Positions 3,878-60,464 of a stretch of 64,000 nt of DNA are shown one piece after another (within the stretch, counting starts at the first letter, position 1; every line of letters begins with the position of its first letter). The stretch comes from Mytilus californianus (lineage: Eukaryota). The notes under the pieces are model-generated. The model saw only the letters and a program-made list of their open reading frames with translations. It was not told where the DNA came from and searched no databases. The stretch lies in contig NW_026262679.1 in assembly GCF_021869535.1 (NCBI RefSeq), positions 92,775,982-92,839,981 on the forward strand, given 5' to 3'. A program made the translations under genes and the position numbers.

Positions 3878-4050
3878 GGTATGATTCCCAATGAGTCAAC
3901 TCTCCACAAGAGACCAAATGACAAAAAAATTAACAAATATAGGTCACTGTACGGCCTTCAACAATGAGCAAAATCCATACCGCATAGTCAGCTATAAAAA
4001 GCCCCGAAATGTAAAACAATTCAAACGAGAAAAAACTAAGTTTATTTGTG
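3878..4050 (+). mobile_element. SINE-like repeat, head-only copy in a WD40-gene intron
   Basis: 'gtggtatgattcccaatgagtcaactctccacaagagaccaaatgac...ggccttcaacaatgagcaaaatccataccgcatagtcagctataaaaagcccc'. Confidence 0.65.
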
Positions 4051-4592: not shown

Positions 4593-4975
4593 GTAATGTT
4601 AAACTGGGCTATTGACCTTTTTATGCCCCACCTAGGGGCATTATATTTTCGGTCTATGTGTCTGTCCATATATTTTTTGTCTAGGAAGTTAATATAAGAT
4701 TATTAAACATTAGATAAAACTCAAAAGTTACTTTTAAGTAGAATTAAATGCAAGGTCTAACACGTGTATTTATTATCACATTTTTCGCAAGAGCTGCAAA
4801 TCAGAGCTTCCTGAAATTTTGCGTCAAGCATGTTTTGAGTAATCATTTGATAATTTGTGTACTCAGTCATTAGGGTCTATCAGTGACATTTAAATTGTTT
4901 AGTTAATTGTCAAAGGAAATTGAAGTCCTGTACAGGTGATTATCAATTATATGAATTTGTGATCTCTCCTCAGAG

Positions 4976-6757
4976 TTTTTATATGACCGCAAAAATTTTT
5001 GCGGTCGTATATTGGTATGACGTTGGCGTCATCGTCGTCGTTGTTGTCTTCGTCCTGCGTCATCCGAAGACACATTGGTTTTCGCACTCTAACTTTAGTT
5101 TAAGTGAATGGATCTCTATGAAATTTTACCATAAGGTTCAATACCACAAAAAGAAGGTTGGGATTGATTTTGGGGGTTATGGTACTAACAGTTAAGGAAT
5201 TAGGGGCCAAAAAGGGGCCAAAAATAAGCATTTTTGTAACTTCCAGACAAAACTTGTGTGTTAGTGTATGGATCTCTCTGACATTGTACCACAAGGTTCC
5301 ATATCACAAAGGGAATGCTGGGATTGATTTTGGGGGTAATTGCCTCAAAATATTAGGAATTAGGGGCCAAAAAAGGGGCAAAAAACAAGCATTTTTCTAG
5401 TTTCATGACAATAACTTGTGTGAAAGTGTATCCATCTTTCTGAAATTGTACTACAAGGTTCCATATCACAAAGGGAAAGCTGGGTTTGAGTTTGGGGGTA
5501 ATTGCCCGAAACGTTTAGGAATAAGGGGCCAAAAAGGGGCCAAAAATAAGCATTTTTCTAGTTTCCAGACAATAACTTGTGTTCAAGTGTATGGATCTCT
5601 CTGAAATTGTACTGCAAGGTACCATACCACAAAGGGAAGGCTGGGATTGAGTTTGGGGGTGATGAATCATAAGGGGGTTCAAAAAATTGGGGGGGGGGGG
5701 ATTTTTTTTTTTTCCTTTTTTTTTTCTTTTAAAATTTTCCATTTTAAGTTGGTTATTTCTGATTTATATTTAAAAGCAAATAACAATGATATGGTAGGAG
5801 ATACACACCAAACAGGATGTGTAAATTATTATATAATAAGTATTGTGCAATAGCAAGAAATTTTCAATTGCACAGTATTGCACAATAGCAAGAAATCTTC
5901 AATTGCACAGTATTGCGCAATAGCAAGAAATCTTTAATTGCACAGTATTGCGCAATAGCAAGAAATATCCAATAGCACAATATTGCGCAATAGCAAGAAA
6001 TTGTCAATTGTGCAGTATTGCGCAAAAGAAGATACTTCGTATAAATTGCTTATTTCTTGACCAATTTCAATGGGGTTTTATTCTTGAATTCTTGGGGTTC
6101 TTTAATATGCTGAATCTAACCGTGTATTAAGTTTTTGGATTTTGGGCCCCATTTTTAAATTGGTCCACATTGAGGTCCAAAGGGTCCAAAATTAAACTAA
6201 GTTTGATTTCATCAAAAATTGAATTCTTAGGGTTCTTTGATATGCTGAATCTAAACATGTATTTAGATTTTTGATTATGGGCCCAGTTTTCAAGTTGGTC
6301 CAAATCGGGGTCCAAAATTAAACTTTGTTTGATTTCAACAAAAATTGAATATATGGGGTTATTTGATATGCTGAATCTAACCATGTATTTAGATTTTTGA
6401 TTTTTGGGCCCCGTTATCATTTTTGTCCACATTGAGGTCAAAAGGGTCCAAAATTAAACTTTGTTTGATTTCATCAAAAATTGAATTCTTGGGGTTCTTT
6501 GATATGCTGAATCTAACCATGTATTTAGATTTTGGATATTGGACCATAATAGGTGAATGTCCAATTTAAAATTTTTAAGTTCTTAGACCACATTCATTCT
6601 GTGTCAGAAACCTATGCTGTGTCAAATATTTAATCACAATCCAAATTCAGAGCTGTATCAAGCTTGAATGTTGTGTCCATACTTGCCCCAACTGTTCAGG
6701 GTTCGACCCCTGCGGTCGTATCAAGCTGCGCCCTGCGGAGCATTTTATTTTTTATTT
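4976..6757 (+). mobile_element. Composite non-autonomous element, family A, copy 1. Its parts in order: hairpin head, GTC-rich microsatellite, roughly 146-bp satellite in 4 units, G/T homopolymer, 35-bp repeat array, roughly 135-bp satellite in about 4 units, conserved tail.
   Basis: Head palindrome 'gaccgcaaaaatttttgcggtcgtata'. The tail reads '...ccccaactgttcagggttcgacccctgcggtcgtatcaagctgcgccctgcggagcattttatt'. It shares the same ordered modules with 12493-14585 and 25882-29300. Confidence 0.8.
5843..6035. repeat. 35-bp tandem repeat (about 6 units), each unit near-palindromic. The same array occurs at 13388-13610 and 26793-27020.
   Basis: 'tattgcgcaatagcaagaaatcttcaattgcacag' is repeated directly with no spacers. 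Confidence 0.85.
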
Positions 6758-6778
6758 GTATATTATTTTTTTTAATAG

Positions 6779-6874
6779 CCAGTGACTTGTGTAGCTGTAT
6801 CCAAAGATAGCAGATACTTTGCCTGTGGTGGAATGGACTGTATGGTCAGACTGTATGATTTCAATACAGGAAAG
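6779..6874 (+). CDS. WD40-repeat gene exon, first clear WD repeat: PVTCVAVSKDSRYFACGGMDCMVRLYDFNTGK
   Basis: Acceptor ttaatAG at 6777-6778 and donor GTAAAT at 6875. It is 32 codons long and in phase 0. Confidence 0.8.
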
Positions 6875-7230
6875 GTAAATAAGGTTCTGTTAAAATGAAT
6901 AAAAGGTGCTGTGAGGTATACATCAGTGAGGAAATAACAAAAAACACCCAATAAAAAACCAGAAGACATCTTTATTGATAACATATGGTCTTCAACAATA
7001 TGTAAGTCTCTCTACAATATGCCAAGCTCAAACTAGTCCTGTGTCTAGAAAACTACCAAATTTTCTGGACTGTAAATCTATGAGGTGGATAGGTGGAAGG
7101 GTTGATTTTTTTTTGGCCAGAATCCTGGAAAAATCTTACGACAGGTCAAAGTGACGGATAAGTTAAGGGTCCAAAATGTATCCACTGATAAGTTTTGGTA
7201 AGTATAAGCTCAAGAAAGAATGTATTTTAT

Positions 7231-8112
7231 TAGTCCCCTACCCACGAAGTTGAAAAGGACTTATGGTTTGCACTCTGTCCGAGTGTCTGTCTGTCTGTCC
7301 ATCAGTCAGTCCGGCAAATCAGTTTTCCACACTTTTTTTCTTCATGCTTGAAGATATTGATTTGATATTTGGTATATAGTTTTATCATGACTAGTTACAG
7401 ATCAAGTTCAAATTTTGTTCCGGTCTGATGATTTTGTGCAGAGTTATGGTCCTTGGACTTAGGAAATTCACGCAAGTAAAAGTTTTCCACACTTTTTTTT
7501 GTCATGCTTAAAGATATTGATTTGATATTTGGTATATAGTTTTATCATGACTAGTTACAGATCAAGGTCGAATTTTGTTCTGGTCTGATGATTTTATGCT
7601 GAGTTATGGTCCTTGGACTTAAAAAATTCACGCAAGTTATCAGTTTTCTGCACTTTTTTTGTCATGCTTAAAGGTATTAATTTGATTTTTGGTATATAGT
7701 TTTATCATGACTAGTTACAGATCAAGTTCAAATATTGTTGCGGTCTGATGATTTCGAGCAGAGTTATGGTCCTTGGACTTAAAAAAATTCAAGAAAGTAA
7801 ACAGTTTTCCGCATTTTTTTTCAACATGCTTGAAGATATTGATTTGATATTTGGTATATAGTTTTACCATGACAAGTTACAGATCAAGTTCAAATTTGGT
7901 TCAGTTCGGATGATTTTGTTTGGCAGAGTTATGGTCCTTGAACTTAGAAAATTCACTCAAATAATCTGTTTTCCACACTTTTTTTTGTTATGCTTGAACA
8001 TGTTGAAGATATTGATTTGATATTTGTTATAAAGTTTACACCATGACAAGTTATAGATCAAGTTAAAATTTTGTCCAAGTACAATGGATTTTTAACCGGA
8101 AGGGGACTATGT
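7231..8112 (+). mobile_element. TIR-flanked element carrying a GTC-rich microsatellite and an internal tandem array of about 125 bp in about 6 units
   Basis: The TIR is 'tagtcccctaccc' at 7231 and 'ggaaggggacta' at 8098, with a possible TA target duplication. The internal unit is 'cagttttccacactttttttgtcatgcttaaagatattgatttgatatttggtatatagttttatcatgactagttacagatcaag...'. Confidence 0.65.
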
Positions 8113-8488
8113 ATTGCCATGCAATACTCTCAGAATGCTTGTTCTATTTAAAATGCAATACTCTTAAATTTACGACTTTCAAGATAATATTCTGTTTGCA
8201 AAATAAAGCCGCAGTTACTTTGTATATGATCAGGTTAGCCATAATGCAAAATCTAAATTGCTTTCCCCATAATGTGCCGCAATTCATACTGTTTAAAACA
8301 TTTGTCATCTGTTTAGGACATCATATTATTTTAATTTGATTTATTTGTTTTGGGGGATTTTTTTGTTGTTTTCCAATCTCTCCATACATTTATATGCTTA
8401 TTTTTCTAGGCAATGCATACGTTTAATAGAACATGTATCTATTAATTTCAACCTTTAGAAGACATACTACTTACTTTATTGTTTTTAG

Positions 8489-8613
8489 GAGCTCCATACA
8501 TTTAGAGGTCATGCTAATGCTATCACCAGTGTGTGTTTTGTTGGACAGTCCATGTTATGTAGTGCTGGATTAGACAATGCTGTCAGTGTTTGGCATATAG
8601 ATCAAGGTCACAG
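8489..8613 (+). CDS. WD40-repeat gene exon: ELHTFRGHANAITSVCFVGQSMLCSAGLDNAVSVWHIDQGHR
   Basis: Acceptor ttttAG at 8487-8488 and donor GTACTT at 8614. It carries a GH...VW WD40 signature. Confidence 0.85.
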
Positions 8614-11311
8614 GTACTTTCAAATATCCTTTTGATTTTTATAGATAGTTTTGATAATTTGTAGACTTATTCAAGAACAATTAAGTTTCCAATATCTTTT
8701 GGACTTCAAAGGAGTAAGTTCATGAAGGCTTAAATTTGGCCCTAAGATTTTGATGTGTTTTTAATCAGGCCAAAATACTACAAATTTCACATAGAAATAG
8801 TTGTGATATAACTATTAATACAAAAAACTTCTTTTTGGCACTTCTCATTTAAAACGACGAAGAAATGGCCCCTCAAGTATGCATTATTTATGTTGTAACG
8901 TCAGTTTCGGTCAAATTTTTCTTAACAGTTTTTAACATAAATAACTTTGGCTGCCACCCCTGATCCTTTTGTGTCGGTATTCAATATCATCATTGGCAAC
9001 TTTTGGCTACTTGACATTTTGGATCCTAGGTTGGGGCGAAGGGTTTCTTCAATCTTTTAGGGTTGAAATATTCACACAATCATCGTTTTTGGACAATATA
9101 TCCAAAATGTACTGACTTTGAAACCTGGAATGCAGCCTTATGAAGAGACTTGTTTAACCTAGTAGTAAGGCTTTTGAAATAGATCCATTTAATAACCAAA
9201 TATTGGCCATTTTGAAATTTTATGATAAACTTGAAATTCAAGGCCATATTTGGCTTAAGGTAGCACTACAGTCTAACAATGATTTTTTGAAGATATTTTT
9301 TTTATCACATAATTTTGAAGTAAGTATTATTCTGCACAGTTTGTAAAAATCCCAAAGTCATTATCATATCACAACAGGGAGTAAATTGATAATGAACTTA
9401 TGTAAATAAAAGCACATGTAATTGATCTAAATATATAGGCATTTGGGAGGGGCTAATATGTCAATCATCTGTTGATACCAGTGTCCAGCTGTTAATCCCT
9501 GACCACAAGATAAATATCTCATTGCATTGCAACAAAACTAATTTATAAAACATGGAAGTTTAGAACAGAGAAAAAGAAAAAGATATGAATAGGAAAAAAT
9601 TTAAAGGGAAAAAATCTACCAAAATGAAAAAAAAACTATGGAAAAGAGTGTGAAAGTATCTTTGAAAGCCTCTGACTGCCTGTATAAATTTCTCGTCTTT
9701 GGTCTTCTACATTTAAAAATAATTTTAGGCATTTTAACTAATTTTAAGTTTATGTGAAATTTTTTCATTCCATGAAACTCATAAATCATGTTGGACAGTC
9801 TATTTTCAAGAAGGGGATGGTCTTGATCTTTTTATGGACATGTATTTTAATTTTAATATTTTAGCTAATTTCAGTCATCATGGTCATATTATATTTCTTT
9901 TTAAAATTCAAATGAAAAGTATTCTTTATAGTGAGAATAATGATGTTAAATATTAATTATGATGCAGCTGGCCAATCCTGTTATTCTCTTATCTTAGACT
10001 GTCTTTTCAGAGGCGGAGCTTTGTCTTTATTTAATTACTACATCACAGATGTTGGTCAAATCTGTGACGTCAAACTCCCGCCAAATGCCAAGTTAGTGTT
10101 ACACAGTGCACACAAAATGCAAATTTTACAGCATTAGAGCATCAAAGACACAATGTTTAGTGGTTCTATTGATAAAGTAATGGTGTCAAAACCCTCCTGG
10201 GGTGTTCCCAGTGGAATTTTTGTATTTATGTGGCATTTATAGGGGTTCTTAAGAGGAAATTCAGTTTTAAGGTCATTTCTCAGAATAATTTTTCATGAGA
10301 ATTGTAAGGAAAAAATGAAAATAGAAACGTTATGGGTACCCCCTTTGTCTTGACTTTGATATATGTGATTGAAGGGAGTATTTTCTACAATACCGTGTCC
10401 CAGTTTTTGGATAATTTGTTTCTAAATGAATTTATAGGTCTCCAAAGATGAAAGGTGAAATGAGGTTTGGCATCCAGCAGTAAAAATAATATATCTTATT
10501 ACTGGAGGCATATATCAAAAATCTGATACACGGTTTTGTAGATTGTGAATGGTTGATTAAAGGGATGAAAACAAATTTTTACTACCATTTGACCTGAATG
10601 TGCCATTTTCATCCAAGTTGGAAGACCACTTTATTGGCAATTAAGGAGCTATATTTTGAGATTAATCATACCAAAAATAAATTTATCTATAGATTAAGAA
10701 AGAGTTATATTTCAGCTTTAAAATGAATTAAAGATTTTAAAAATCCATTGAGTAGTTTTGGAGAAATTAATCTTTAAAGACTGTTGGTTGGAGTCAGAAA
10801 ATTCTGACTGTAGTGCTACCTTAAAGAGAACCTTGTCCATTAGACCACAATCTTAAATTTACTAATTAAGAAAATCAATTACATGTTAATTAATTACATT
10901 TCACAGTCTCAAAAATTATCCCTGACCCTATCAGGACTAAAGTAATGAGATTCCCATAATGCAACATCATTTCTGAATTTGTCCATTTTACTATGTATAT
11001 CATCCTCCATTTACTAGATGAATAGATCCAAAATGTTTAGATAGTTGTTCAAGTCGTAATGTTTGCTTTGCATAGTATATCCAACCAGGTAATTTAAATG
11101 ATCTTAGGATCAATTATGACCTTGATACATTAACATATTTCATTTTTAAAAATGATTGATTATTTTCTAAAAGCAGATGACACAGATGTCTTTACCCTTG
11201 CAAAGGTGAAAACATTTTTGCGATATCTTTCAGATTTATGTAAAATTATGGTGATTAAAAAGGAAAAATATTGTTAAATTTAGACTTTAAGAAAGTGTGT
11301 TTTTTTTGTAG

Positions 11312-11461
11312 GATACATGTTTTGAGTCAGCACAATAGAAGAGTACAGTCAGTTGCCTCAGACAAGGCTGGAAAATTCATTGCATCAGCTTCATGGGATT
11401 GTACTGTGAAAGTATGGAATGCTGTTAAAGGGGACAAATCTTGTGAATTATTGGTTGGAAG
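11312..11461 (+). CDS. WD40-repeat gene exon: IHVLSQHNRRVQSVASDKAGKFIASASWDCTVKVWNAVKGDKSCELLVG
   Basis: Acceptor ttgtAG at 11310-11311 and donor GTAAGA at 11462. It falls inside track ORF 11271-11465 and contains the WD motif 'SWDCTVKVW'. Confidence 0.85.
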
Positions 11462-11597
11462 GTAAGAAAAATTAAAATCTTGTACCCTTCACAAATATTT
11501 GATATGGATTTATGATTGTTTATGGGTATATAGAGATGTACAAAAACATTGTGATATTTGTGCAAATTAAGATAGAAAGGGTAAAACAAGAAAAAAG

Positions 11598-11812
11598 TAC
11601 TGTAAATTCAGAAATTATTACGATGTCTTTATTATTGCGAAAAATGCGATAGGGTTATAATCGCAATAATTTAAACTCGCATTTTGAAATTTTTTTTGTG
11701 AATTAAACAGGATTTTTCTCAATATCGCAAAAATTAAAATCGTATTTTAGTCTAAAATGACAAAATCGCAATAATAAATGCACGCAATAATTTCTGAATT
11801 TACAGTATCCAC
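11598..11812. mobile_element. MITE of about 215 bp with TIR 'ctgtaaattcagaaattatt(a/g)cg'
   Basis: Left end 'ctgtaaattcagaaattattacgatg' and right end 'gcacgcaataatttctgaatttacag'. It lies in the intron between exons 11312-11461 and 11918-12023. Confidence 0.65.
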
Positions 11813-11917
11813 AAAAATAAGTTTAACAGTATAAAATTTCAAAGTTAAATTTCTACAGAAATCAAATGTAAAGCTGTTACCATGTACAATTTATATTGAT
11901 TCCTGTGTCAATTTCAG

Positions 11918-12023
11918 CCAAGTGAACTGTGTTGACTTCCACCCAGAAGGTCAGCTGATCGTTACGGGAAGCTGGGATGCAACACTGAAGATCTGGGATA
12001 TATTCCACAGAAAAAGAAAAGCT
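11918..12023 (+). CDS. WD40-repeat gene exon: QVNCVDFHPEGQLIVTGSWDATLKIWDIFHRKRKA
   Basis: Acceptor tttcAG at 11916-11917. The donor GTATGT at 12024 is assigned with less certainty. The WD motif is 'SWDATLKIWD'. Confidence 0.7.
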
Positions 12024-12492
12024 GTATGTATTGCATTGGATATTTAAGGATGTATTTCCATGTTTATAGGAATCTTGTAAAAACATAAACCAGATATTCA
12101 AGGGAATGGAAACATAATTAAAACATTGTGGGGGTATTTTAGATAATTTTGAAGACTTCTTTTACATTAGGGGTCCCTTAATTTAAGGTTTAGGGCAGGG
12201 CTTCCAAAATTATTTTTAGCCAGCCGGACATTTTATATATTATCCTGATTTTAATCCCTTAAGACTAAATAAATAAAAGGCAATTATGGTAATCAGTTGC
12301 CGAGTTGGCCATCCGAATGATTGACATTAAAAAAAAACCGATATTAAACTTTCTTTGATTCAAATTCGAAGTTCTGACATAAACTGTTAAATTGGCAGTG
12401 CATCATTTGAAGTGTGCAACATCAGCGTACTTATATCTGCTTAGACTCTTTATTTGTGCAAAATAACGTTGTCAAAAACTTTACTTTCGTTT

Positions 12493-12545
12493 TTATACGA
12501 CCGCAAAAATTAAAAATTTTTTGGTCGTATATTGGTATGACGTTG

Positions 12546-12577
<32 letters not shown>

Positions 12578-14585
12578 CGGCGTCGTCCGGCGTCGTCCGA
12601 AGACACATTGGTTTTCGCACTCTAACTTTAGTTTAAGTGAATGGATCTCCATGAAATTTCACCATAAGGTTCAATACCACAAAAGGAAGGTTGGGATTGA
12701 TTTTGGGGGTTATGGTACCAACAGTTAAGGAATTAGGGGCCAAAAAGGGGCCAAAAATAAGCATTTTTGTAACTTTCAGACAATAACTTGTGTGTAAGTG
12801 TATGGATCTCTCTGACATGTACCACAAGGTTCCATATCACAAAGGGAAGGCTGTAATTGATTTTGGGGGTAATTGCTTCAAAATTTTAGGAATTAGGGGC
12901 CAAAAAAGGGGCAAAAAACAAGCATTTTTCTAGTTTCATGACAATAACTTGTGTGTAAGTGTTTGGATATTTCTGAAATTGTACTACAAGGTTCCATATC
13001 ACAAAGGGAAAGCTGGAATTGAGTTTGGGGGTAATTGCCCGAAACGTTTAGGAATTGGGGGCCAAAAAGGGGCCAAAAATAAGCATTTTTCTAGTTTCCA
13101 GACAATAACTTGTGTTCAAGTGTATGGATCTCTCTGAAATTGTACTGCAAGGTACCATACCACAAAGGGAAGGCTGGGATTGAGTTTGGGGGTGATGAAT
13201 CATAAGGGGGTTCAAAAAATTGGGGGGGGGGATTTTTTTTTTTTTTTTTTTTCTTTTTTTCCTTTTTTTTTTCTTTTAAAATTTTCCATTTAAAGTTGGT
13301 TATTTCTGATTTATATTTAAAAGCAAATAATAATGATATGGTAGGAGATACACACCAAACAGGATGTGTAAATTATTATATAATAAGTATTGTGCAATAG
13401 CAAGAAATTTTCAATTGCACAGTATTGCACAATAGCAAGAAATCTTCAATTGCACAGTATTGCGCAATAGCAAGAAATCTTCAATTTAACAGTATTGCGC
13501 AATAGCAAGAAATATCCAATAGCACAATATTGCGCAATAGCAAGAAATTGTCAATTGTACAGTATTGCGCAATAGCAAGAAATATTCAATTGCACAGTAT
13601 TGTGCAAAAGAAGATACTTCGTATAAATTGCTTATTTCTTGATCAATTTCAATGGGGTTTTATTCTTGAATTCTTGGGGTTCTTTAATATGCTGAATCTA
13701 ACCGTGTATTAAGTTTTTGGATTTTGGGCCCCGTTTTTAAATTGGTCCACATTGAGGTCCAAAGGGTCCAAAATTAAACTTTGTTTGATTTCAACAAAAA
13801 TTGAATATATGGGGTTCTTTGATATGCTGAATCTAAACATGTATTTAGATTTTAGATTTTTGGCCCAGTTTTCAAGTTGGTCCAAATTGGGGTCCAAAAT
13901 TAAACTTCGTTTGATTTCAACAAAAATTGAATATATGGGGTTCTTTGATATGCTGAATCTTACCATGTATTTAGATTTTTTATTTGTGGGCCCGCTATCA
14001 AATTGGTTCATATTGAGGTCAAAAGGGTCCAAAATTAAACTTTGTTTGATTTCATCAAAAATTGAATTATTGGGGTTCTTTGATATGCCAAATCTAACTG
14101 TGTTTTTAGATTTTTAATTTAGGGTCCCGTTTTTTAAATTTGTCTACATTAAGGTCCAAAGGGTCCAAAATTAAACTTAGTTTGATTTTAACAAAAATTG
14201 AATTCTTCGGGTACTTTGATATGCTGAATCTAAACATGTGTTTAGATTTTTGATTATGGGACCAGTTTTCAAGTTTGTCCAAGTTGGGGTCCAAAATTAA
14301 ACTTTGTTTGATTTCAACAAAAATTGAATATATGGGGTTCTTTGATATGCTGAATCTAACCATGTATTTTGATTTTGGACATTGGACCATAATAGGTAAA
14401 TTAAAAAAATTGAAGTTCTTAGACCACATTCTTTCTGTGTCAGAAACCTATGCTGTGTCAAATATTTAATCACAATCCAAATTCAGAGCTGTATCAAGCT
14501 TGAATGTTGTGTCCATACTTGCCCCAACTGTTCAGGGTTCGACCTCTGCGGTCGTATCAAGCTGCGCCCAGCGAAGCATTTTATT
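12493..14585 (+). mobile_element. Composite element family A, copy 2. It has (GTC)12, 4 units of the 146-bp repeat, a 35-bp array and about 6 units of the 135-bp satellite.
   Basis: Head 'tatacgaccgcaaaaattaaaaattttttggtcgtata' is a perfect 9-bp-arm hairpin. The tail reads '...gcggtcgtatcaagctgcgcccagcgaagcattttatt'. Confidence 0.8.
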
Positions 14586-15294
14586 AAATCTAAACCGGGT
14601 GTTATCTTGACAATGGTAAAACATGGACCAGAGACTGATACGTAAATTCCGTGTACGTTTACAAAGCATGAATGAGTGTAAGTAGCTCTTTCTACGTTAT
14701 TTCTTCAAGAAAATATTCGAAATAAACGTGAGATAAAGGTATCAATGACAATTTAAGCATTTTTTTAAGGAATTAGGATGCATAATTAAATTTCATGTCT
14801 CTGGTTCAAACAACGTGGTTATGACGATTTTTCATTTTCACCTTTTTAATTTTTTCATCAAATCATATTTGTAAACGTATTTCTGATAATTTAAATCTTT
14901 TTGACTAAATTAATTAGATGCAAACCGCTGAAATGTAAGAAAATAACTTTGAATAGACCGATCAATGTCCGGTTAAAAATAGTTTACCTGTCACCTGAAC
15001 AGGTAAATTTCAGCTGTTGGACAACTAATTAGCCTTGATTAAAATGAGAAGGTATTAAAGTAGGGTTTGTATTGATAGTACTTAATGATCATGTCACTTT
15101 TATGACCGGAAATGTGTGGCTGTTAAAGGCAAAAGGTTGGGTCAAAAAGATCGCGAATTATGTTAAAATGACCGTCTCTTAAGCCTTGAAAACTAAAAAG
15201 TAGATGTCTGTTTCATGCTTTGCCCAGCCGGACTTTTACCGAACATTATACAAATGTCCGGAATATATGACCGTTTTGGAAGCCTTGGTTTAGG

Positions 15295-15405
15295 GTTCAT
15301 TTATGGTTAAGGTAAGGTTAGGGTTTGTTCTAGGTTAGAGTTAGGTTAAGGGTCAGTGTTGGTTACAGGTATGGTATGGGTGAGGGTTAGTTTAATATAG
15401 CCCTA
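15295..15405. repeat. Degenerate hexamer array resembling a permuted telomeric TTAGGG repeat (interstitial telomere-like sequence)
   Basis: 'ggttaaggtaaggttagggtttgttctaggttagagttaggttaagggtcagtgttggttacaggtatggtatgggtgagggttag'. It immediately precedes the 15440 element. Confidence 0.5.
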
Positions 15406-15439
15406 TATGGGTTGGGATCCCTAAGGTAATATAATGCCA

Positions 15440-16440
15440 TTTATGTCGAGCCTTCGACTTTAGTCGAAAAAGCAAGGCATAGCGATCCTACATTCCGTCG
15501 GCGTCGTTGTCGTCGGCGGCTTCCACAAATATTCACTCTGTGGTTAAAGTTTTTGAAATTTTAATAACTTTCTTATACTATCCTGGATTTCTACCAAACT
15601 TGGACAGAAGCTTGTTTATGATCATAAGATAGTATCCAGAAGTAAATTTTGTAAAAATAAAATTCCATTTTTTCCGTATTTTACTTATAAATGGACTTAG
15701 TTTTTCTGCCGGGAAATATTACATTCACTCTGTGGTTACAGTTTTTAAAATTTTAATAACTTTCTTAAACTATCCTGGGTTTGTACCAAACTTGGACAGA
15801 AGCTTGTTTATGATCATAAGATAGTATCTAGAAGTAAATTTTGTAAAAAAATAAATCCATTTTTTCCTTATTTTACTTTTAAATGGACTTAGATTTTCTG
15901 CTTGGAAACAACACATTCACTCTGTGGTTAAAAGTTTTTAAAATTTTGATAACTTTCTTATACTATTTTGGATTTGTACCAAACTTGGACAGAAGCTTGT
16001 TTATGATCAAAAGCTAGTATCTAGAAGGAAATTTTGTAAAAAAATAAATCCATTTTTTTCGTATTTTACTTTTAAATGGACTTAGATTTTCTGCCAGGAA
16101 ACAACATATTCACTCTGTGGTTAAAGTTTTTAAAATTTTAATAACTTTCTTATACTATTTTGGATTTGTACCAAACTTGGACAGAAGCTTGTTTATGATC
16201 AAATGCTAGTATCTAGAAGGAAATTTTGTTTTTTTCCAGTTAACATTACATTCAGTCTACAGTTAAAGTTTTTAAACATTTATTAGATTCATAAACTATC
16301 CTGGATTTTTACCAAACTTGGGCAGAAGCTTCCTACAATCAAAAGATAGTATCAAGAGGAATATTTTTATTGATTTACTTCCTCGTTTTTGTTGAGCCTG
16401 CGATTAACAGAAAAAGTAGGCGAGACACTGGGTTCCGCGG
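15440..16440 (+). mobile_element. Composite element with head 'tgtcgagccttcgactttagtcgaaaaagca', a (GTCG/GGCG) microsatellite, a tandem array of about 185 bp in about 5 units, and a tail 'ttgttgagcctgcgattaacagaaaaagtaggcgagac' that partly repeats the head
   Basis: The unit '...cattcactctgtggttaaagtttttaaaattttaataactttcttatactat..tggatttgtaccaaacttggacagaagcttgtttatgatca.aag.tagtatctagaag.aaattttgtaaaaaaataaatccattttttc.tattttacttttaaatggacttagattttctgcc.ggaaa' is repeated head-to-tail. Confidence 0.65.
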
Positions 16441-17197
16441 AACCCTTACGAATTTTTGGTTATTGTTTTTCAGAGGATGATGCAACAGTCAAATTATATT
16501 TAAATATGGTATCGGGTCTGCAAAATGTGCATTTTCTCCCATTTTTCTCCTCAAATGCATGAATTTATATTCAGACTACCCCTTAACAGTGCCTATCCAG
16601 GATTTTGAGGATAGGGGGCATAATTGTGCATAATGGTAGAAAAACAGGTGAGCGTAGTGATTAAAAAATGTTTTGATGATTTTATGCCACAAATTTTTTT
16701 CCAGTCAAAGTGGTTCACCTTCTACAACCTCCTGAGTCTGCCAATGCTTAATATACAGAAAAGTTGCAAGGGCTAAATGGCAACTTCCTTGAACATTTTC
16801 ATTAGGAAACAGTAAAGATGTATTTATGCCTTTTAAAAAGCTGGACTGATTACAAGGAAGAGGTCATTCATTTGAAAATGGTGCTATTTCAATCAAGGTT
16901 AAGAAGGTTACATACTGTCAACTCTAATTTGTATATAACACTGACCTATAATCATATATTTAGACTCAATCCAATTATTATTAAGACAATTACTAATGAT
17001 TACTCAAATCCATTGAATTATTGAATAGTTTGTGACGTAATTAGAATAAACTTTTGAATGATCACATGAAAATAGTACATTTTATGAACTTTTTGGTAGA
17101 ATAATTAAAATTTCTTGTAGAATTATAACAAGTCTGCACTTGTTTGAAATTAAAATTTAGATACTAGTTACTAGTCATATAAATTTTCTTCTTTCAG

Positions 17198-25881: not shown

Positions 25882-25957
25882 GTCCTTTTTATACGACCGC
25901 AAAAATTGAAAATTTTTTGGTCGTATATTGGTATGACGTTGGCATCGTCGTCGTCGA

Positions 25958-25988
<31 letters not shown>

Positions 25989-28900
25989 TGGCGTCGTCCG
26001 AAGACACATTGGTTTTCGCACTCTAACTTTAGTTAAAGTGAATGGATCTCCATGAAATTTTACCATAAGGTTCAATACCACGAAAGGAAGGTTGGGATTG
26101 ATTTTGGGGGTTATGGTACCAACAGTTAAGGAATTAGGGGCCAAAAAGGGGCCAAAAATAAGCATTTTTGTAACTTCCAGACAATAACTTGTGTGTAAGT
26201 GTATGGATCTCTCTGACATTGTACCACAAGGTTCCATATCACAAAGGGAAGGCTGTAATTGATTTTGGGGGTAATTGCCTCAAAATTTTAGGAATTAGGG
26301 GCCAAAAAAGGGGCAAAAAACAAGCATTTTTCTAGTTTCATGACAATAACTTGTGTGTAAGTGTTTGGATATTTCTGAAATTGTACTACAAGGTTCCATA
26401 TCACAAAGGGAAAGCTGGAATTGAGTTTGGGGGTAATTGCCCGAAACGTTTAGGAATTGGGGGCCAAAAAGGGGCCAAAAATAAGCATTTTTCTAGTTTC
26501 CAGACAATAACTTGTGTTCAAGTGTATGGATCTCTCTGAAATTGTACTGCAAGGTACCATACCACAAAGGGAAGGCTGGGATTGAGTTTGGGGGTGATGA
26601 ATCATAAGGGGGTTCAAAAAATTTGGGGGGGGATTTTTTTTTTTCTTTTTTTTTCTTTTTTTCCTTTTTTTTTTTCTTTTAAAATTTTCCATTTTAAGTT
26701 GGTTATTTCTGATTAATATTTAAAAGCAAATAATAATGATATGGTAGGAGATACACACCAAACAGGATGTGTAAATTATTATATAATAAGTATTGTGCAA
26801 TAGCAAGAAATTTTCAATTGCACAGTATTGCACAATAGCAAGAAATCTTCAATTGCACAGTATTGCGCAATAGCAAGAAATCTTCAATTGCACAGTATTG
26901 CGCAATAGCAAGAAATATCCAATAGCACAATATTGTGCAATAGCAAGAAATTGTCAATTGTACAGTATTGCACAATAGCAAGAAATATTCAATTGCACAG
27001 TATTGTGCAAAAGAAGATACTTCGTATAAATTGCTTATTTCTTGATCCATTTCAATGGGGTTTTATTCTTGAATTCTTGGGTATTTAATATGCTGAATCT
27101 AACCGTGTATTAAGTTTTTGGATTTTGGGCCCCGTTTTTAAATTGGTCCACATTGAGGTCCAAAGGGTCCAAAATTTAACTTTGTTTGATTTCATCAAAA
27201 ATTGAATTATTGGGGTTCTTTGATATGCCGAATCTAACCGTGTATTTAGATTCTTAATTTTTGGTTCCGTTTTCAAATTGGTCTACATTAAGGTCAGAAG
27301 GGTCCAAAATTAAACTTAGTTTGATTTTAACAAAAATTGAATTTTTAGGGTTCTTTGATATGCTGAATCTAAACATGTATTTAGATTTTTGATTATGGGC
27401 CCAGTTTTCAAGTTGGTCCAAATCGGGGTCCAAAATTTAACTTTGTTTGATTTCAACAAAAATTGAATATATGGGGTTCTTTGATATGCTGAATCTAACC
27501 ATGTATTTAGATTTTTGATTTTTGGGCCCCGTTATCAACTTTGTCCACATTGAGGTCAAAAGGGTCCAAAATTAAACTTTGTTTGATTTCATCAAAAATT
27601 GAATTCTTGGGGTTCTTTGATATGCTGAATCTAACCATGTATTTAGATTTTTTATTTGTGGACCCGCTATCAAATTGGTTCATATTGAGGTCAAAAGGGT
27701 CCAAAATTAAACTTTGTTTGATTTCATCAAAAATTGAATTATTGGGGTTCTTTGATATGCCAAATCTAACCGTGTATTTAGATTTTTAATTTTGGGTCCC
27801 GTTTTTAAATTGGTCTACATTAAGGTCCAAAGGGTCCAAAATTAAACTTAGTTTAATTTTAACAAAAATTGAATTCTTGGGGTTCTTTGATATGCTGAAT
27901 CTAAACATGTGTTTAGATTTTTGATTATGGGCCCAGTTTTCAAGTTGGTCCAAGTTGGGGTCCAAAATTAAACTTTGTTTTATTTCAACAAAAATTGAAT
28001 ATATGGGGTTCTTTGATATGCTGAATCTAAACATGTATTTAGATTTTAGATTTTTGGCCCAGTTTTCAAGTTGGTCCAAGTTGGGGTCCAAAATTAAACT
28101 TTGTTTGATTTCAACAAAAATTGAATATATGGGGTTCTTTGATATGCTGAATCTAACCATGTATTTAGATTTTTTATTTGTGGGCCCGCTATCAAATTGG
28201 TTCATATTGAGGTCAAAAGGGTCCAAAATTAAACTTTGTTTGATTTCATCAAAAATTTCATTATTGGAGTTCTTTGATATGCCAAATCTAACCGTGTATT
28301 TAGATTTTTAATTTTGGGTCCCGTTTTTTAAATTGGTCTACATTAAGGTCCAAAGGGTCCAAAATTAAACTTAGTTTGATTTTAAGAAAAATTGAATTTT
28401 TGGGGTTCTTTGATATGCTGAATCTAAACATGTGTTTAGATTTTTGATTATGGGACCAGTTTTCAAGTTGGTCAAAGGTGGGGTCCAAAATTAAACTTTG
28501 TTTGATTTCAACAAAAATTGAATATATGGGGTTCTTTGATATGCTGAATCTAAACATGTATTTAGATTTTAGATTTTTGGCCCAGTTTTCAAGTTGGTCC
28601 AAATTGGGGTCCAAAATTAAACTTTGTTTGATTTCAACAAAAATTGAATATATGGGGTTCTTTGATATGCTGAATCTAACCATGTATTTAGATTTTTTAT
28701 TTTGTGGGCCCTCTATCAAATTGGTTCATATTGAGGTCAAAAGGGTCCAAAATTAAACTTTGTTTGATTTCATCAAAAATTGAATTATTGGGGTTCTTTG
28801 ATATGTCAAATCTAACCGTGTTTTAAGATTTTTAATTTTGGGTCCCGTTTTTTAAATTGGTCTACATTAAGGTCCAAAGGGTCCAAAATTAAACTTAGTT

Positions 28901-29300
28901 TGATTTTAACAAAAATTGAATTCTTGGGGTACTTTGATATGCTGAATCTAAACATGTGTTTAGATTTTTGATTATGGGACCAGTTTTCAAGTTTGTCCAA
29001 GTTGGGGTCCAAAATTAAACTTTGATTGATTTCAACAAAAATTGAATATATGGGGTTCTTTGATATGCTGAATCTAACCATGTATTTTGATTTTGGACTT
29101 TGGACCATAATAGGTAAATTAAAAAAATTGAAGTTCTTAGACCACATTCTTTCTGTGTCAGAAACCTATGCTGTGTCAAATATTTAATCACAATCCAAAT
29201 TCAGAGCTGTATCAAGCTTGAATGTTGTGTCCATACTTGCCCCAACTGTTCAGGGTTCGACCTCTGCGGTCGTATCAAGCTGCGCCCAGCGAAGCATTTT
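25882..29300 (+). mobile_element. Composite element family A, copy 3. Its 135-bp satellite array is expanded to about 16 units (27040-29110).
   Basis: It has the same head, (GTC)n, 146-bp repeats, G/T tract, 35-bp repeats and tail as copies 1 and 2. Only the 135-bp array length differs. Confidence 0.8.
27040..29110. repeat. Tandem satellite with a period of about 135 bp and about 16 units, internal to family-A copy 3
   Basis: Unit 'ttgaattcttggggttctttgatatgctgaatctaaccatgtatttagattt..gggccc.gtttt.aaattggtc.acattgaggtccaaagggtccaaaattaaactttgtttgatttcatcaaaaa' recurs head-to-tail. The track ORFs on both strands here are artefacts. Confidence 0.85.
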
Positions 29301-29312
29301 ATTGTTTTTTAG

Positions 29313-29524
29313 GCTAATGAGCTTGCCAGTATGTCAGGACACGATGACAGAGTTCTCAGTGTATCATCTGACGCACAGGGAAAATTGTGTACAAGCAGTC
29401 TAGACAAGTCTGTCCGTCTGTGGGCTCCACAATTGTCAACAACAGCATCAGATACAGGACATAATGGATCAGTGACATTTGTCATTTCTATAGAAAATGG
29501 AGCAGGATTACTGACTGGAAGCAG
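29313..29524 (+). CDS. WD40-repeat gene exon: ANELASMSGHDDRVLSVSSDAQGKLCTSSLDKSVRLWAPQLSTTASDTGHNGSVTFVISIENGAGLLTGS
   Basis: Acceptor ttttttAG at 29311-29312, directly after the tail of a composite element, and donor GTATGA at 29525. Confidence 0.85.
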
Positions 29525-30489
29525 GTATGAGATCAGCATAGATTAAAATAGAAAAGATAGATTTATACACGACTACAATCCAATGGAATACTTGACTTAA
29601 TTTTCTCCCATTGGTGGGTGCTCTTTAATACACAGTGCTCTGCCAGTTATTTAAAATGGTTCATACTCCATGAGGGTAAAATTGTCTTGTCCAATAAATA
29701 AGTATTTTCAGGTACTGTAATTAATAGCTAATTCAGTATGACATATAGTTATTGTTAGTACTATTGTTGACCTCTCCAATGATAGGGTTTTTTCACAAAC
29801 TTAAAAGTATATGAGGAAAAAACTCTCCCTCTGTTTGCTCATGAGTTACCAAATTTGTGTCCTGACAATAATATATTTACTTCCATATAAATATTGTAGG
29901 CTTTAAAAAAATTAATTGAGACAATTATTATGTTGATCAGATCAAATATTTCATTATAGGTGAATATCAACAGAAATTATTTAATACATATGTTTTGGGA
30001 AATAAATTTCACAACTAGATAATAAAAGCATAATTTATATTCATTTTTTGGTGCATTTCCTAGTTTAATAATTTTCTCTTCATGGAATTTGACAATAAGG
30101 TGAAATTGAAACTTCATTAACCAAATAAATGTGTCCAACTTTTATTAGAAAAATGTCACCATTTACAATATTTGGTGCTTGGCCAGAATTTCTTTACATT
30201 TAGTGATATGCAACCTTGTTCCAGCTGAGCCTAGAATTGAAATTTTTACTGAAAGTTCCACCAAATTTGAGTGAGTTCTATTGAAAATTTTTTTAAAAGA
30301 TCTGCCTCACTTCAGTCTGATCCGTGATATAAATCCATTGGCTATGGTGGAAAACAAAGACCAGTTACACTTGGACAAAAAATATATGCCGCTTGGACTG
30401 ACAGTCTTTTCTTTTATGAAGGAGACAATAATATATATGATTTTAATGAAGTTTTCCTTTCAGTTTTATATTGTTTTCTTCTGTTGAAG

Positions 30490-33677: not shown

Positions 33678-33894
33678 GTAAAGCTTACCAATTACATATT
33701 TTCTTATTTATCTGGACGCAGGTTCTAACAAGGATTGGTATGTTATCACACAAGAACAAATTTGATGTGTAAATCTTTGATTAGAATTTCCTGTTTGTCC
33801 AACATTTTTATTTTCTGCACAGATTTTTGGGAATGTGATAATAAACCTGTATAATTTTGTTCAGTTGCTTTTAAAATTAAACAAAGTTTTCTTT

Positions 33895-34495
33895 TTATGC
33901 CCCCATTGTAGCGGAGGGGCATTAAGTTTACCTAGCCATTGTCAACCTTGTCAGTCTGTTTTCTATTCTCTAACTTTAGTTTGCCTCAACGAAATGTTGT
34001 GAAACTCATACACAATGCTTATTACCACAAAACACGATCAAGTTTGAATTTTGGTGGCATCACTTATACTGTTTTAAAGTTATGCCCCTTTACAAAAGGA
34101 AAAATTGCTGAATTTTTTGTTTCCGTTCTCTAGCTTAAGTTTCCCTCAACCAAATGTTATGAAACTTATACACAATGCTTATTACCACATAATACAGATC
34201 AAGTTTAAATTTGGTGATGTTACTTTAACAGTTCCAGAGTTATGCCAGTTTACAAATGGAAAAATTGCTGAATTTTTTCGTTTCCGTTCTCTTACTTATG
34301 TTTACCTGAACTAAATGTTATGAAACTTATACACAATGCTTATTACTACAAAATACAGATCAAGTACAAATTTAGGTAGGATCACTTTTACCGTTCTTCA
34401 GTTATGTCCCTTTAAAACTTTATATGATATGCAAGCGGGGTCATCATCTGTGTTCCATGGACACATTCCCCATTTATTGTTTTCTATGGTATTCA
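33895..34495 (+). mobile_element. Composite element family B: head 'ttttatgcccc..gtagcggaggggcattaag' (hairpin), three units of about 165 bp, tail '...gggtcatcatctgtgttccatggacacattccccatttatt'
   Basis: Unit 'gtt..cgttctctaactttagtttgcctcaac.aaatgttatgaaact.atacacaatgcttattaccacaaaacacagatcaagtttgaattttggtggcatcactt.tac.gtt.t..agttatgcccctttacaaa.ggaaaaattgctgaattttttgtttcc'. Related copies occur at 42730-43760 and 60465-61090. Track ORFs 33939-34545 are artefacts. Confidence 0.7.
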
Positions 34496-41309: not shown

Positions 41310-41575
41310 GATGTATGTGCTGAATCTAACCATGTATTTAGATTTTGGATATTGGACCATAATAGGTAAATGTTCAAAATCAAATTTTTACGTTTTTTGA
41401 CCACATTCATTCTGTGTCAGAAACCTATGCTGTGTCAAATATTTAACAAAATATCCAAATTCAGAGCTGTATCAAGCTTGAATGTTGTGTCCATACTTGC
41501 CCCAACTGTTCAGAATTTTGACCTCTGCTGTTGTATCAAGCTGCACTCTGTGGAGCATTTCATCCTTTAAGTGTT
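41310..41575 (+). mobile_element. Truncated family-A element: one 135-bp unit plus tail only
   Basis: 'gctgaatctaaccatgtatttagattttggatattggaccataataggtaaatg...cagaaacctatgctgtgtcaaatattt...cagagctgtatcaagcttgaatgttgtgtccatacttgccccaactgttcag...' matches the 3' 250 bp of copies 1-3. Confidence 0.7.
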
Positions 41576-42729
41576 GATCAGATAAATATATATATATAAC
41601 TTATATGACCTTAGATTTAAACCTTGAATTTTTTCAAGGAATGCCAGTTTGAGTATGATCATATAAAAAACAACAGGACTCAGGTTATTTCATGATAAAT
41701 TTAATAACAATAAACCTACCCATTGAAAACAGAAACCAGCTATAACAGATATAATTATAATTATCACAATAAATAAGATGATTTCAACAAGTATGAAACT
41801 AAAACAATAATATATTTAGTATTCCTGATACTAAATTTATACATAAACAAGATACATGTATATATATATATATTCAGTTTATTAGAAAACAACACACATG
41901 TACTCGCTTATTAGAATGTTGATAGATTTTGTTAATTCATCTGTTTTAGTACCTATTCTTCTTGGTAAGTAGTATTTTCCTTTAAGTTGCCTGTAATATG
42001 AAAAATATTTACAGACAAATTACACATAATTAAAAAGACCTATTTTATACTTTATAACATTTCCAATTTAGGCCTTGCAGTCATAAAACTTTTGAGTATG
42101 ATTATCATACTCAGACTCAGAAATCAATCAATCAAAATACTAGATTTGGTTTTTCATGCACAATTTTATGACCATACACCTTCTCAGCTTGTACTAAACT
42201 GGATGAATGTATATGTCAAGTTGAAGCTGCTATCCTGTATGGAGAATCTGATTTAAGTGCAGCTTCTATTCATAATGTTTTAATCCAAGGAAAATATATT
42301 TTTATGGTTTTTCAAGCTGCTAGTACATTGTATATGTCATTTTGTGATTACAGTTCAAAAGCTTCTATACACTTTACACACTTGGGACAGTTGTTAAGGC
42401 ACAAATTGCTCAAAAGTTTTGAGTGTTTATTAAATAGCTACTATGTATTAAATGAAATGAATAAATGCTTTAAATTTATTGAGCCAGACAAGTTGCGACA
42501 AGCTAGTTTTTCAAAGTTATGAAATCAAAACATCATTATAAGATATGGCCCTATTAACCAGTTTCTGAGTACTCAACTCTAACCCTATTATTTTCAACAG
42601 TCAAAAAATGAAATAAACTGCACAACAAAAAATCATTCAAGAAAACTGAGGTAAGAAATTACAGTAGCACAATGAATGTATAAGCTATTATTTCTTTTGT
42701 TGTGGATTTGAAGTAGAAGAAACTAGGGT

Positions 42730-43760
42730 TTTTATGCCCCTGCCGTAGCGGAGGGGGCATTAAGTTTTACCCTTGTCCGTCTGTACGTACGTCCTTCCGT
42801 CCGTCTGTATGTCCCAAAGTTGGTTTCCGTTCTCTAACTTTAGTTTGCTTCAACCGAATGTTATGAAACTTATACAAAATGCTTATTACCACAAAACACA
42901 GATCAAGTTTGAATTTTGGTGGCATCACATTTACCATTGTTGAGTTATGCCCCTTTACAAATGAAAAAAAATGCTGAATTTTTTGTTTCCGTTTTCTAAC
43001 TTTAGTTTGCCTCAACCAAATGTTATTAAACTTACACAAAATGCTTATTTCCACAAAATACAGATCAAGTCTGAATTTTGGTGGTGTCACTTCAACCGTT
43101 GTTGAGTTATGCCCCTTTACAAATGAAAAAAATGCTGATTTTTTTGTTTCTGTTCTCTACCTTTAGTTTGCCTCAACCAATTTATTAAACTTATATAAAA
43201 TGCTTATTACCACAAAATACAGATCAAGTTAGAATTTTGGTGGTGTCACTTCAACTGTTCTGGAGTTATGCTCATTTACAAATGGAAAAATATGAATCTA
43301 ATATCTGTTCTAAAAATATCAATGATGTAATTGTTAAAATTATTTTTTTAAATTGAGTTATCTTCCTTTGTCCATAATTGTAGTTGAATCAACTACAATT
43401 ATGGACAAAATTAATTTTAACAATTACATCAACTACAACCAATGCTTTATACAATGCAATGTTCACTGGAAAAATTAAAACAATCTTTACCCTTCAGTGC
43501 TTACAAGCACTTTGATTAATGTTCTTCAGTGTTGTCCCTTTATAACCTTATATGATATTTTGTTTTCGTTCTCTAACTTAAGTTTGTCTCAACTAAATTT
43601 AATGAAATGTATATATAATGCTTATTAACACTTAACTCAGTTTAAGTTCAAATTTTGGAAGCGTCACTTTTACAGTTCTTGAGCTATGTCCCTTTATAAT
43701 GTTATATGCTAACGGGGGCATCATCTGTGTCCCTATGGACACATTCCCAATTTATTTTAT
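42730..43760 (+). mobile_element. Family B composite element copy. It has head, (GTCCGTCC/GTACGTAC) microsatellite and 3-4 units, and is interrupted at about 43300-43550 by a palindrome-bearing insertion before the last unit and tail.
   Basis: Head 'tttatgcccctgccgtagcggagggggcattaagttttacccttgtccgtctgtacgtacgtccttccgtccgtctgtatg'. The tail reads '...ggggcatcatctgtgtccctatggacacattcccaatttatt'. Confidence 0.65.
43335..43435. repeat. Near-perfect nested palindrome of about 100 bp (foldback or hairpin MITE) inside family-B copy 2
   Basis: 'gatgtaattgttaaaattat...tttgtccataattgtagttgaatcaactacaattatggacaaaattaattttaacaattacatc'. The inner 21-bp arms are perfect. Confidence 0.7.
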
Positions 43761-60370: not shown

Positions 60371-60464
60371 TATTTGAACAAGCATTTGTTAAAGTCAGAC
60401 TTTTGAAACCAGTTAAGAAAACTTTTGAAAAATACAAAAATAATAACTATCGTGTATTTTTATG

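Follow-up and report, generated by a model that had tools for sequence, protein, structure and literature searches.

Intronic repeats of Mytilus californianus that share a hairpin, microsatellite and tandem-array head are very probably HINEs, non-autonomous derivatives of Helentrons

A 64-kb stretch of the genome of the mussel Mytilus californianus (contig NW_026262679.1; called the window below) carries several repeat elements that open with a short palindrome, continue with a G/C-rich microsatellite and lead into tandem arrays, which raises the question of what kind of element recurs here and how it would be mobilised. By comparing the window with itself and running a pattern scan, we found 12 repeat elements or fragments: family A (copies A1 to A3 and a solo tail), family B (B0 to B3) and the single elements C, D, E and F. 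The same head plan is kept in 10 of the 12. We assign them, with a probability of roughly 90%, to the HINEs, non-autonomous derivatives of Helentrons, and as such they occupy about 22% of the window. Helentrons are a branch of the rolling-circle Helitron superfamily whose protein unites an HUH Rep nuclease with a PIF1 helicase and an AP endonuclease. The assignment is made because subterminal inverted repeats (subTIRs), a complementary repeat, a palindrome at the 3′ end and entry into T-runs with no target-site duplication match the published definition; every structural HINE feature tested was found.

The head runs in the order T-run, short subterminal repeat and, close by, its complementary copy (the two forming the hairpin), G/C-rich microsatellite and tandem arrays. 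Hairpins were evaluated by single-stranded DNA folding, with z values relative to shuffled sequence. These ranged from -4.1 to -6.3 in family A and from -3.4 to -4.8 in B0, B2 and B3, and reached -3.1 in D at 63251; the hairpin of C at 59383 was moderate (z -2.5) and that of the decayed copy B1 was weak (z -1.4). Microsatellites were defined with Tandem Repeats Finder (TRF) at a low threshold, as G/C-containing tracts with a repeat unit of 3 or 4 nt present at least four times. There are seven in the window (at 5027, 7284, 12547, 25945, 42775, 59423 and 60510), each lying 10-50 nt 3′ of a head hairpin and 5′ of an array, and none was found away from the heads. Positions no more than 100 nt from a head make up about 1.7% of the window, so that a placement of seven out of seven would be expected by chance with a probability of the order of 1e-12. 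F and D carry shorter tracts of (CGTCGG) or (GGC) type. Likewise, all 13 long-period arrays found in the window are part of these elements, and a strict hairpin-plus-microsatellite scanner gave no match in any of 20 shuffled windows. The head architecture is thus real and far from chance. A count of A-free, GC-rich tracts was dropped as non-discriminating (20 observed, 7-25 in Markov simulations) and the TRF-defined microsatellites were used instead. As a separate observation, GGCGTCC recurs at the 3′ edge of the microsatellite in several families.

Coincidence, by which generic microsatellites or satellites would happen to lie beside palindromes, or SINE-like retroposons would be mistaken for something else, has a negligible probability. 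That the genome is repeat-rich is the only point in its favour; set against it are the seven microsatellites, all at heads, the empty shuffled windows, defined boundaries that are common to the copies, and the occurrence of the same head in 50 independent contigs. A retroposon of the SINE kind is further contradicted by the elements themselves, in which ARAGORN found no tRNA genes, Rfam gave no matches and neither a poly-A tail nor a target-site duplication was seen.

Every sequence quoted in a preliminary description of this locus was located at the position given there. The head order that it had proposed for all families was confirmed by the microsatellites (7/7) and the arrays (13/13), its hairpin being weak in F and absent in E. 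It had also set the microsatellite immediately after the hairpin, which does not hold, a spacer of 10-35 nt intervening, and had called the tract GTC-rich throughout, which is right for most heads and wrong for D, where it is of (GGC) type. The possibility raised there that such tracts are generic microsatellites also found outside element heads was not borne out in the window. The arrays were correctly described as gene-less, no open reading frame in the elements having a family match (six-frame motif scan and Pfam), which leaves them with no detectable coding capacity. All the copies listed were found, and the list was incomplete: B0 (4618), A1 (4976), C (59381) and a solo A tail (41315) had to be added.

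At the other end, the elements follow an equally regular plan: an inverted copy of the 5′ repeat stands 27-34 nt before the end and is followed by a short palindrome and a terminus ...TTTAT (in E ...GCTTGTT). In family A, ATACGACCGCA (11 bases), near the 5′ end, returns inverted as TGCGGTCGTAT 27 nt from the 3′ end, with 11/11 pairs in A2 and A3 and 10/11 in A1. The pair of E, TAGTCCCCT and AGGGGACTA, matches at 9/9, that of C at 8/9 and that of family B over 7-8 bp, and the 5′ subTIR starts about 5 nt after the beginning of the T-run. In the D/F type, it is the hairpin that is repeated at both ends, in decayed form. A, B, C, E and F all have a 3′ palindrome (GCTGCGC..GCGAAGC in A and C, GTGTCC..GGACAC in B, GTATTGC..GCAATAC in E and GGGTTCCGCGGAACCC in F); wherever the end is known, the palindrome stands 7-16 nt from it. 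The 5′ termini in the window read T(n)ATACGACCGCA, T(n)ATACGCCCG, T(n)ATGCCCCC, T(n)ATTAGTCCCCT and T(n)ATTGTCGAGCC, and the 3′ termini ...TGCGGTCGTAT-N3-palindrome-ATTTTAT and ...GGGGGCAT-N5-palindrome-CCCCATTTAT, the last bases being ...GCATTTTAT in A, ...GCAGTTTAT in C, ...CCCCATTTAT in B and probably ...GCTTGTT in E. Within family A (three copies) and family B (three copies) the flanks are unrelated, and homology extends from within the T-run to ...TTTAT|T. In HINE terms, the head corresponds to the left module, made up of terminal Ts, a subTIR of 7-11 bp and its complementary copy, a spacer and (GTC)n, (GTCY)n or (GGC)n; the arrays are the HINE 'central repeats', and the inverted subTIR, short palindrome and 3′ terminus are the right module.

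Insertion was followed at the orthologous spermine oxidase (SMOX) loci of three other Mytilus species (L009 of M. galloprovincialis, L010 of M. coruscus and L012 of M. edulis), the comparisons of empty with filled sites being taken from the first two. C, filled as CATTTTT[C element]TTGAAC, faces the empty site CATTTTTTTAAC in M. galloprovincialis and is also absent from M. coruscus. B3, filled as GTGTATTTT[B3]TTAAC, faces the empty site GTGTTTTTTTTTTAAC in M. coruscus. The D head (63251) is inserted at CTCATTT, past which an older 145-bp monomer runs on in M. coruscus. All three insertions (C, B3 and the 5′ junction of D) lie inside T-runs and show no target-site duplication beyond ambiguous Ts; they are present in M. 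californianus and absent in M. coruscus or M. galloprovincialis. The D head itself interrupts the final monomer of a 145-bp array that is older and belongs to its own family (62540-63330 of the window; 16409-17130 of L010), so that either a T-run in that array was targeted or a tandem copy has a truncated inner 3′ end.

These junctions bear on whether the elements could be MITEs (miniature transposable elements with inverted repeats), moved by a DDE cut-and-paste transposase that recognises their inverted repeats. Short inverted repeats near both ends would suit such elements, and pearl and DTC84 were first so classified, the older literature speaking of 'MITE-like' elements with a putative AA/TT target-site duplication (PMC3879986). 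The repeats of the mussel elements are, however, subterminal, their ends are asymmetric with an extra palindrome at the 3′ end only, and no fixed target-site duplication exists at the three orthologous pairs of empty and filled sites. In the window, neither Rep, helicase nor transposase was detected by motif expressions or by Pfam on 93 stop-to-stop open reading frames of at least 68 aa outside the elements, which matched only WD40/TEP1-like and amine-oxidase exons. Elements of this kind have, moreover, since been moved to the Helentrons (PMC4067079, PMC7492417), and we consider a MITE origin improbable.

The termini also separate the elements from canonical non-autonomous Helitrons (Helitron-N), which would belong to the same superfamily without deriving from Helentrons. 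Canonical Helitrons, which likewise belong to the rolling-circle superfamily, have a hairpin near the 3′ end, leave no target-site duplication and often occur as non-autonomous derivatives; tandem arrangements are also seen. They differ in having TC...CTRR ends, an A/T target, no subTIRs and no endonuclease domain. The mussel elements, by contrast, end as T(n)AT...TTTAT (one probably as ...CTTGTT) rather than 5′-TC...CTRR-3′, they target a T-run and not A|T, and they possess subTIRs, three features that set Helentrons apart (PMC4067079), which makes a canonical Helitron source highly improbable.

As HINEs, the elements fit a type of anatomy that is well documented. [quoted passage not shown] The head described here is the standard left end of HINE/DINE-1-type elements; it has already been described in bivalves and is not new, so that the description given for oysters and clams is now extended to M. 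californianus, although its individual mussel families may be unnamed. The Pacific oyster has 11 Cg_HINEs, each with a left part (LF) of 5′ subTIR, inverted repeat and microsatellite and a right part (RF) of 3′ subTIR and palindrome (PMC7492417). Their microsatellites are of GTCY, GTCC or GTCK type, also with units of 3 to 8 nt (Vojvoda Zeljko et al., 2020, PMC7492417); sometimes two arrays are present, and related flanks may carry unrelated repeats (PMC7492417). Oyster and mussel elements share the order of modules, including the variable spacer and the satellite-like central repeats, and both enter T-rich sites without target-site duplication. They differ in species and sequence, in the distance of 27-34 nt from subTIR to 3′ end in the mussel, and in family A, which unlike Cg_HINEs has three successive arrays (161, 35 and about 126 bp), a T45 tract and a trinucleotide (GTC)n.

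Earlier descriptions of bivalve elements point in the same direction. Pearl (Crassostrea virginica), DTC84 (Donax trunculus) and MgE (Mytilus galloprovincialis) are tandem-repeat 'MITE-like' elements with core repeats of about 160 bp. Their arrays end on one side in a tetranucleotide microsatellite, and the modules that flank them contain inverted repeats of 10-20 bp. The clam element DTC84 and pearl have the same modules as the mussel elements (PMC3879986), and all three were later re-categorised as HINEs (PMC7492417). MgE is reportedly without a microsatellite (PMC3879986), whereas the mussel families studied here have one; MgE and pearl are likened to them by description only. In Drosophila, a 'GTCY-rich microsatellite' is a common feature of DINE-1 in 12/12 species studied (Yang and Barbash, 2008, PMC2374699). 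These insect elements have a conserved core block, and their likeness to the mussel elements is one of architecture. For DINE-1, mini-me and SGM, autonomous Helentron partners have been identified (PMC2374699, PMC4067079), unlike for the mussel elements. A 9-mer, ATACCCTTG, common to a mussel spacer and a Drosophila Helentron subTIR, was estimated to be at chance level and was dropped. One implication for annotation is that 'satellite' arrays in mussel introns are to be read as transposon cargo. Beyond what has been published go only the question of the partner and the orientation bias, both treated below.

How such elements would move can be outlined by analogy. A Helentron Rep/helicase acting in trans would recognise the structured ends, with the 5′ hairpin region, and nick at the 5′ end; it would then unwind the element, peel off one strand and stop at the 3′ palindrome. 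The single-stranded copy would be joined between two Ts, the target not being duplicated, and the microsatellite and arrays would travel as internal cargo whose length may shift by slippage or unequal exchange. We infer this enzymology, and any role of the microsatellite, from established Helitron and Helentron biology. Since the microsatellite persists from flies to bivalves, and other G-rich repeats replace it on the same head, one may speculate that it is a conserved, slippage-prone motif.

Are the families related, and would one machinery serve them all? The preliminary description had called them unrelated and had proposed a common recognition or initiation module for a single mobilisation machinery. 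Several of them in fact share modules: A and C have homologous heads and a tail of about 250 bp in common, B and C share the spacer ACCCTTGTCCGTC, and D and F have homologous heads with the hairpin GTCGAGCCTKCGA in common. The 160-bp monomers of B and E contain a conserved box (z 7-8 relative to shuffles), and the 161- and 126-bp monomers of family A are more similar than shuffles (z 5.6). Most other pairs of monomers showed no similarity above shuffles, only B/E and A161/A126 exceeding them, and a common homology of the A, B and C monomers was dropped, as the comparison with shuffles gave it no support. A recognition or initiation module with a Helentron-type partner is in keeping with HINE anatomy. 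There are, however, at least four subTIR types in the window (ATACGACCGCA/ATACGCCCG, ATGCCCCC, TAGTCCCCT and GTCGAGCC), and 'one machinery' is therefore better read as one type of machinery, probably comprising several related Helentron lineages.

Such heads also occur outside the window. The head of an Ostrea edulis element (L007, 20527-20610) aligns base for base with that of mussel C (59381-59470), the former reading TTTTTATACGCCCGT..ACGGGCCGTATTATG.. and the latter TTTTTATACGCCCGT..CGGGACGTATTATGG.., each followed by (GTCC)n. By pattern scan, the C head (the TATACGCCCGT hairpin and the GTATTATGG spacer) is kept in Ostrea edulis and in 50 metagenome contigs (L013-L062); the B-type head had no match in the metagenome scan. 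In 43 of the 50 metagenome copies, 4-5 Ts directly precede TATACG, and in 46 contigs a G/C-rich tract follows the hairpin, mostly (GGGC)n, once (GTCC)n and once (GTCCGGC)n, so that one head type pairs with different microsatellites and cargo. In 30 contigs, the inverted subTIR ACGGGCGTAT is matched further downstream with at most two mismatches, and in most of them a palindrome and a conserved ...CTCTTGTT end come next. Loci of Pecten and Ruditapes show the same architecture with subTIRs of their own, and the head type of Ruditapes finds a match in M. edulis (TTTTTAGCTCACCTG...).

Helentron proteins of Ruditapes, Pecten, Ostrea and Saccostrea all contain the diagnostic EFQxRGSPHxH motif, and one of their loci offers a concrete candidate arrangement for a bivalve HINE partner. 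In Ruditapes philippinarum (L006, JAKTTH010007951.1, 3417-8937), an uninterrupted open reading frame of 1272 codons (4977-8795) encodes the Rep motif EFQQRGSPHIH and PIF1 and endonuclease domains. On its 5′ side stands a HINE head at 3417, with a 16-bp hairpin, a degenerate GTC tract and a 153-bp array of 5.8 copies, and on its 3′ side a HINE-type tail at about 8908-8932, with the palindrome GGGCCATCATGACCC and the end TCTTGTTTAA. Neighbouring HINEs share the segment after the microsatellite, related arrays and the tail. Judged from this layout, the locus is a candidate, and only that, for an autonomous Helentron carrying the hairpin-microsatellite-array head, a type of partner that is unreported for bivalve HINEs. 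No HINE-type head was found beside the open reading frame at the Ostrea and Saccostrea Helentron loci, and heads in Pecten about 8 kb upstream of the open reading frame were not assignable to it.

Several observations weigh against the HINE assignment. The hairpin of F at 15441 is weak (z -1.1, a 5-bp stem GTCGA/TCGAC), and in E at 7231 folding gave no hairpin (z +0.7), an imperfect internal repeat AGTCC..GGACT being all that is present. Neither F nor D has a clean inverted 3′ subTIR. No autonomous mussel Helentron with matching termini was found within the 64-kb window, and a 738-aa composite query returned bivalve proteins with no Mytilus Helentron among the 120 matches listed; in the oyster, too, no Repbase Helentron was linked to the Cg_HINEs (PMC7492417). 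The Ruditapes arrangement is a single locus with a degenerate 3′ subTIR, at which a nested insertion is possible. Finally, we infer transposition itself from presence and absence between species. A 58-aa Rep-motif query drawn from a supplementary alignment retrieved only 17 short unnamed fragments, and a Helentron from the Tara metagenome, reached through one of them, proved unrelated to mussels.

The orientation of the elements relative to genes raises a second question. In the window, both host genes are on the + strand and all 12 copies lie in the sense orientation relative to them. The same was seen for all nine HINE-related segments at the M. coruscus SMOX locus (L010), for five of five microsatellite-array junctions in or beside the gene at the Mercenaria SMOX locus (L011) and for the one copy in M. 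edulis (L012, 551-640), which is on the minus strand, as is the neighbouring gene that holds it. Outside the elements, T-runs occur as often as A-runs, so that target availability does not explain the bias. We consider it unlikely that bivalve HINEs integrate in a strand-specific way, relative to transcription or to replication passing through genes, and not at random with filtering afterwards; under such a mechanism an HUH enzyme integrating single-stranded DNA into the displaced non-template strand would produce a sense-only pattern. Selection against premature polyadenylation is rated more likely and would be sufficient as an ordinary cause, because antisense copies bring about 7 times more AATAAA motifs into the pre-mRNA (22 antisense, 3 sense). 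No published analysis of a sense-strand bias of HINEs was found in the literature searched, and the presence of every copy on the sense strand of its host gene may be new. Such complete orientation in genes, like the question of the autonomous partner of bivalve HINEs, could matter more than the implication for annotation.

The individual elements, all on the + strand, are laid out as follows. Family A is represented by three complete HINEs. A1 (4976-6748) has its subTIR at 4981-4991, the complementary repeat at 5000-5010 and (CGT)n at 5027-5061; arrays of 161 bp (5090-5660), 35 bp (5839-6032) and about 130 bp (6084-6537) lead to the 3′ subTIR (6711-6721), the palindrome (6725-6741) and the end ...GCATTTTAT at 6748. 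A2 (12490-14584) has the subTIR ATACGACCGCA at 12495-12505, the complementary repeat at 12522-12530, a (CGT)n/(CGTCGTCCGG)n microsatellite at 12541-12599 and a T45 tract at 13233-13277. Its arrays, of 161 bp (12623-13193), 35 bp (13386-13614) and 126 bp (13675-14376), are followed by the 3′ subTIR (14547-14557), the palindrome (14561-14577) and the end at 14584. In A3 (25886-29302), the subTIR (25891-25901) and (TCG)n (25945-26000) precede an expanded 126-bp array of 15 copies (27069-29094), and the 3′ subTIR, palindrome and end are at 29265-29275, 29279-29295 and 29302. A solo 3′ tail of A/C type, from a 5′-truncated copy, occupies 41315-41560. Family A also has an internal T-run, 29-47 nt long and preceded by a G-run, between arrays 1 and 2 (5702-5730, 13233-13277 and 26634-26680), which adds to a strong excess of T over A on the top strand of the elements. 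The 3′ end of A3 (...GCATTTTAT, 29302) lies 10 nt 5′ of a probable splice acceptor, TTGTTTTTTAG|GCTAATG (AG at 29311-29312), of the WD40 exon 29313-29525, and A3 thus abuts the polypyrimidine tract of the intron.

Among the family-B copies, B0 (4618-4700) consists of a head only, with a T-run and a decayed GTC tract and no array; its subTIR ATGCCCC (4623-4629) and complementary repeat GGGGCAT (4635-4641) form a hairpin of z -3.8. B1 (33892-34477) is a decayed HINE with the subTIR at 33897-33904, the complementary repeat at 33916-33922, an eroded microsatellite, a 160-bp array (33966-34414), a palindrome (34450-34464) and the end ...CCCCATTTAT at 34477. B2 (42729-43755) has its subTIR at 42734-42741, the complementary repeat at 42753-42760, (GTCC/GTAC)n at 42775-42808 and a 162-bp array at 42823-43290, the 3′ subTIR, palindrome and end being at 43714-43721, 43727-43742 and 43755. 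Its array is broken by a foreign insertion of about 260 bp (approximately 43292-43554) in which TTGTCCATAATTGTAGTTGA and TCAACTACAATTATGGACAA form a long internal inverted repeat; it probably belongs to another class, as a foldback or MITE-type element. B3 (60457-61079) comprises a subTIR (60462-60469), a complementary repeat (60481-60488), (GTCC/GTAC)n (about 60497-60540), a 161-bp array (60553-60996), a 3′ subTIR (61039-61046), a palindrome (61052-61066) and the end at 61079.

C (59381-60373) begins with the subTIR ATACGCCCG (59386-59394) and its complementary repeat (59399-59408), continues with (GTCC/GTCT)n (59423-59461) and a 159-bp array (59471-60061), and closes with an A-type tail in which the 3′ subTIR (60338-60346) and palindrome (60350-60366) precede the end ...GCAGTTTAT at 60373. 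E (7226-8143) has perfect 9-bp subTIRs, TAGTCCCCT (7231-7239) and AGGGGACTA (8101-8109), a weak complementary repeat (7255-7263), (GTCT)n (7277-7300) and a 160-bp array (7321-8074); after the palindrome GTATTGCCATGCAATAC (8111-8127), the probable end ...GCTTGTT is at 8143. F (15439 to approximately 16460) has a D-type head with the hairpin GTCGAGCCTTCGAC (15445-15458), a (CGTCGG)-type tract (15496-15520), a 192-bp array (15531-16229), a decayed second copy of the head hairpin (16391-16426) and the perfect palindrome GGGTTCCGCGGAACCC (16430-16445). Directly 5′ of its head, at 15290-15420, lies a degenerate telomere-like tract of about 110 bp (TTAGGG/TTAGGTT variants). The older D-family 145-bp array (62540-63250), without a recognisable head, is also present in M. 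coruscus and was the target of the D insertion. D itself (63251-64000) is the 5′ part of a HINE that continues beyond the window, with the hairpin TGTCGAGCC...GCTCGACA (63256-63288), a (GGC)-type tract (63304-63316) and a 147-bp array from about 63430.

The window as a whole is AT-rich and repeat-dense (GC about 0.32). A TEP1-like WD40 gene on the + strand gives Pfam matches on open frames from about 11.3 to 29.5 kb, and the SMOX gene, also on the + strand, has its first exon at about 54.5 kb (Pfam). An amine-oxidase exon, an open frame of 302 codons (57646-58551), is 100% identical over 298 residues to the spermine oxidase-like protein XP_052101576.1 of M. californianus and 97-99.7% identical to other Mytilus species. 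On the identity of this exon and the placement of the TEP1-like and SMOX exons, the window is nuclear DNA of a mussel, and most of its HINE elements are located in introns. Recurring + strand open frames with the motif TAFNNEQNPYRIV (at approximately 3900-4000 and at 47455-47745, 50534-50764, 51990-52250 and 55930-56187) represent another dispersed repeat, unrelated to the HINEs.

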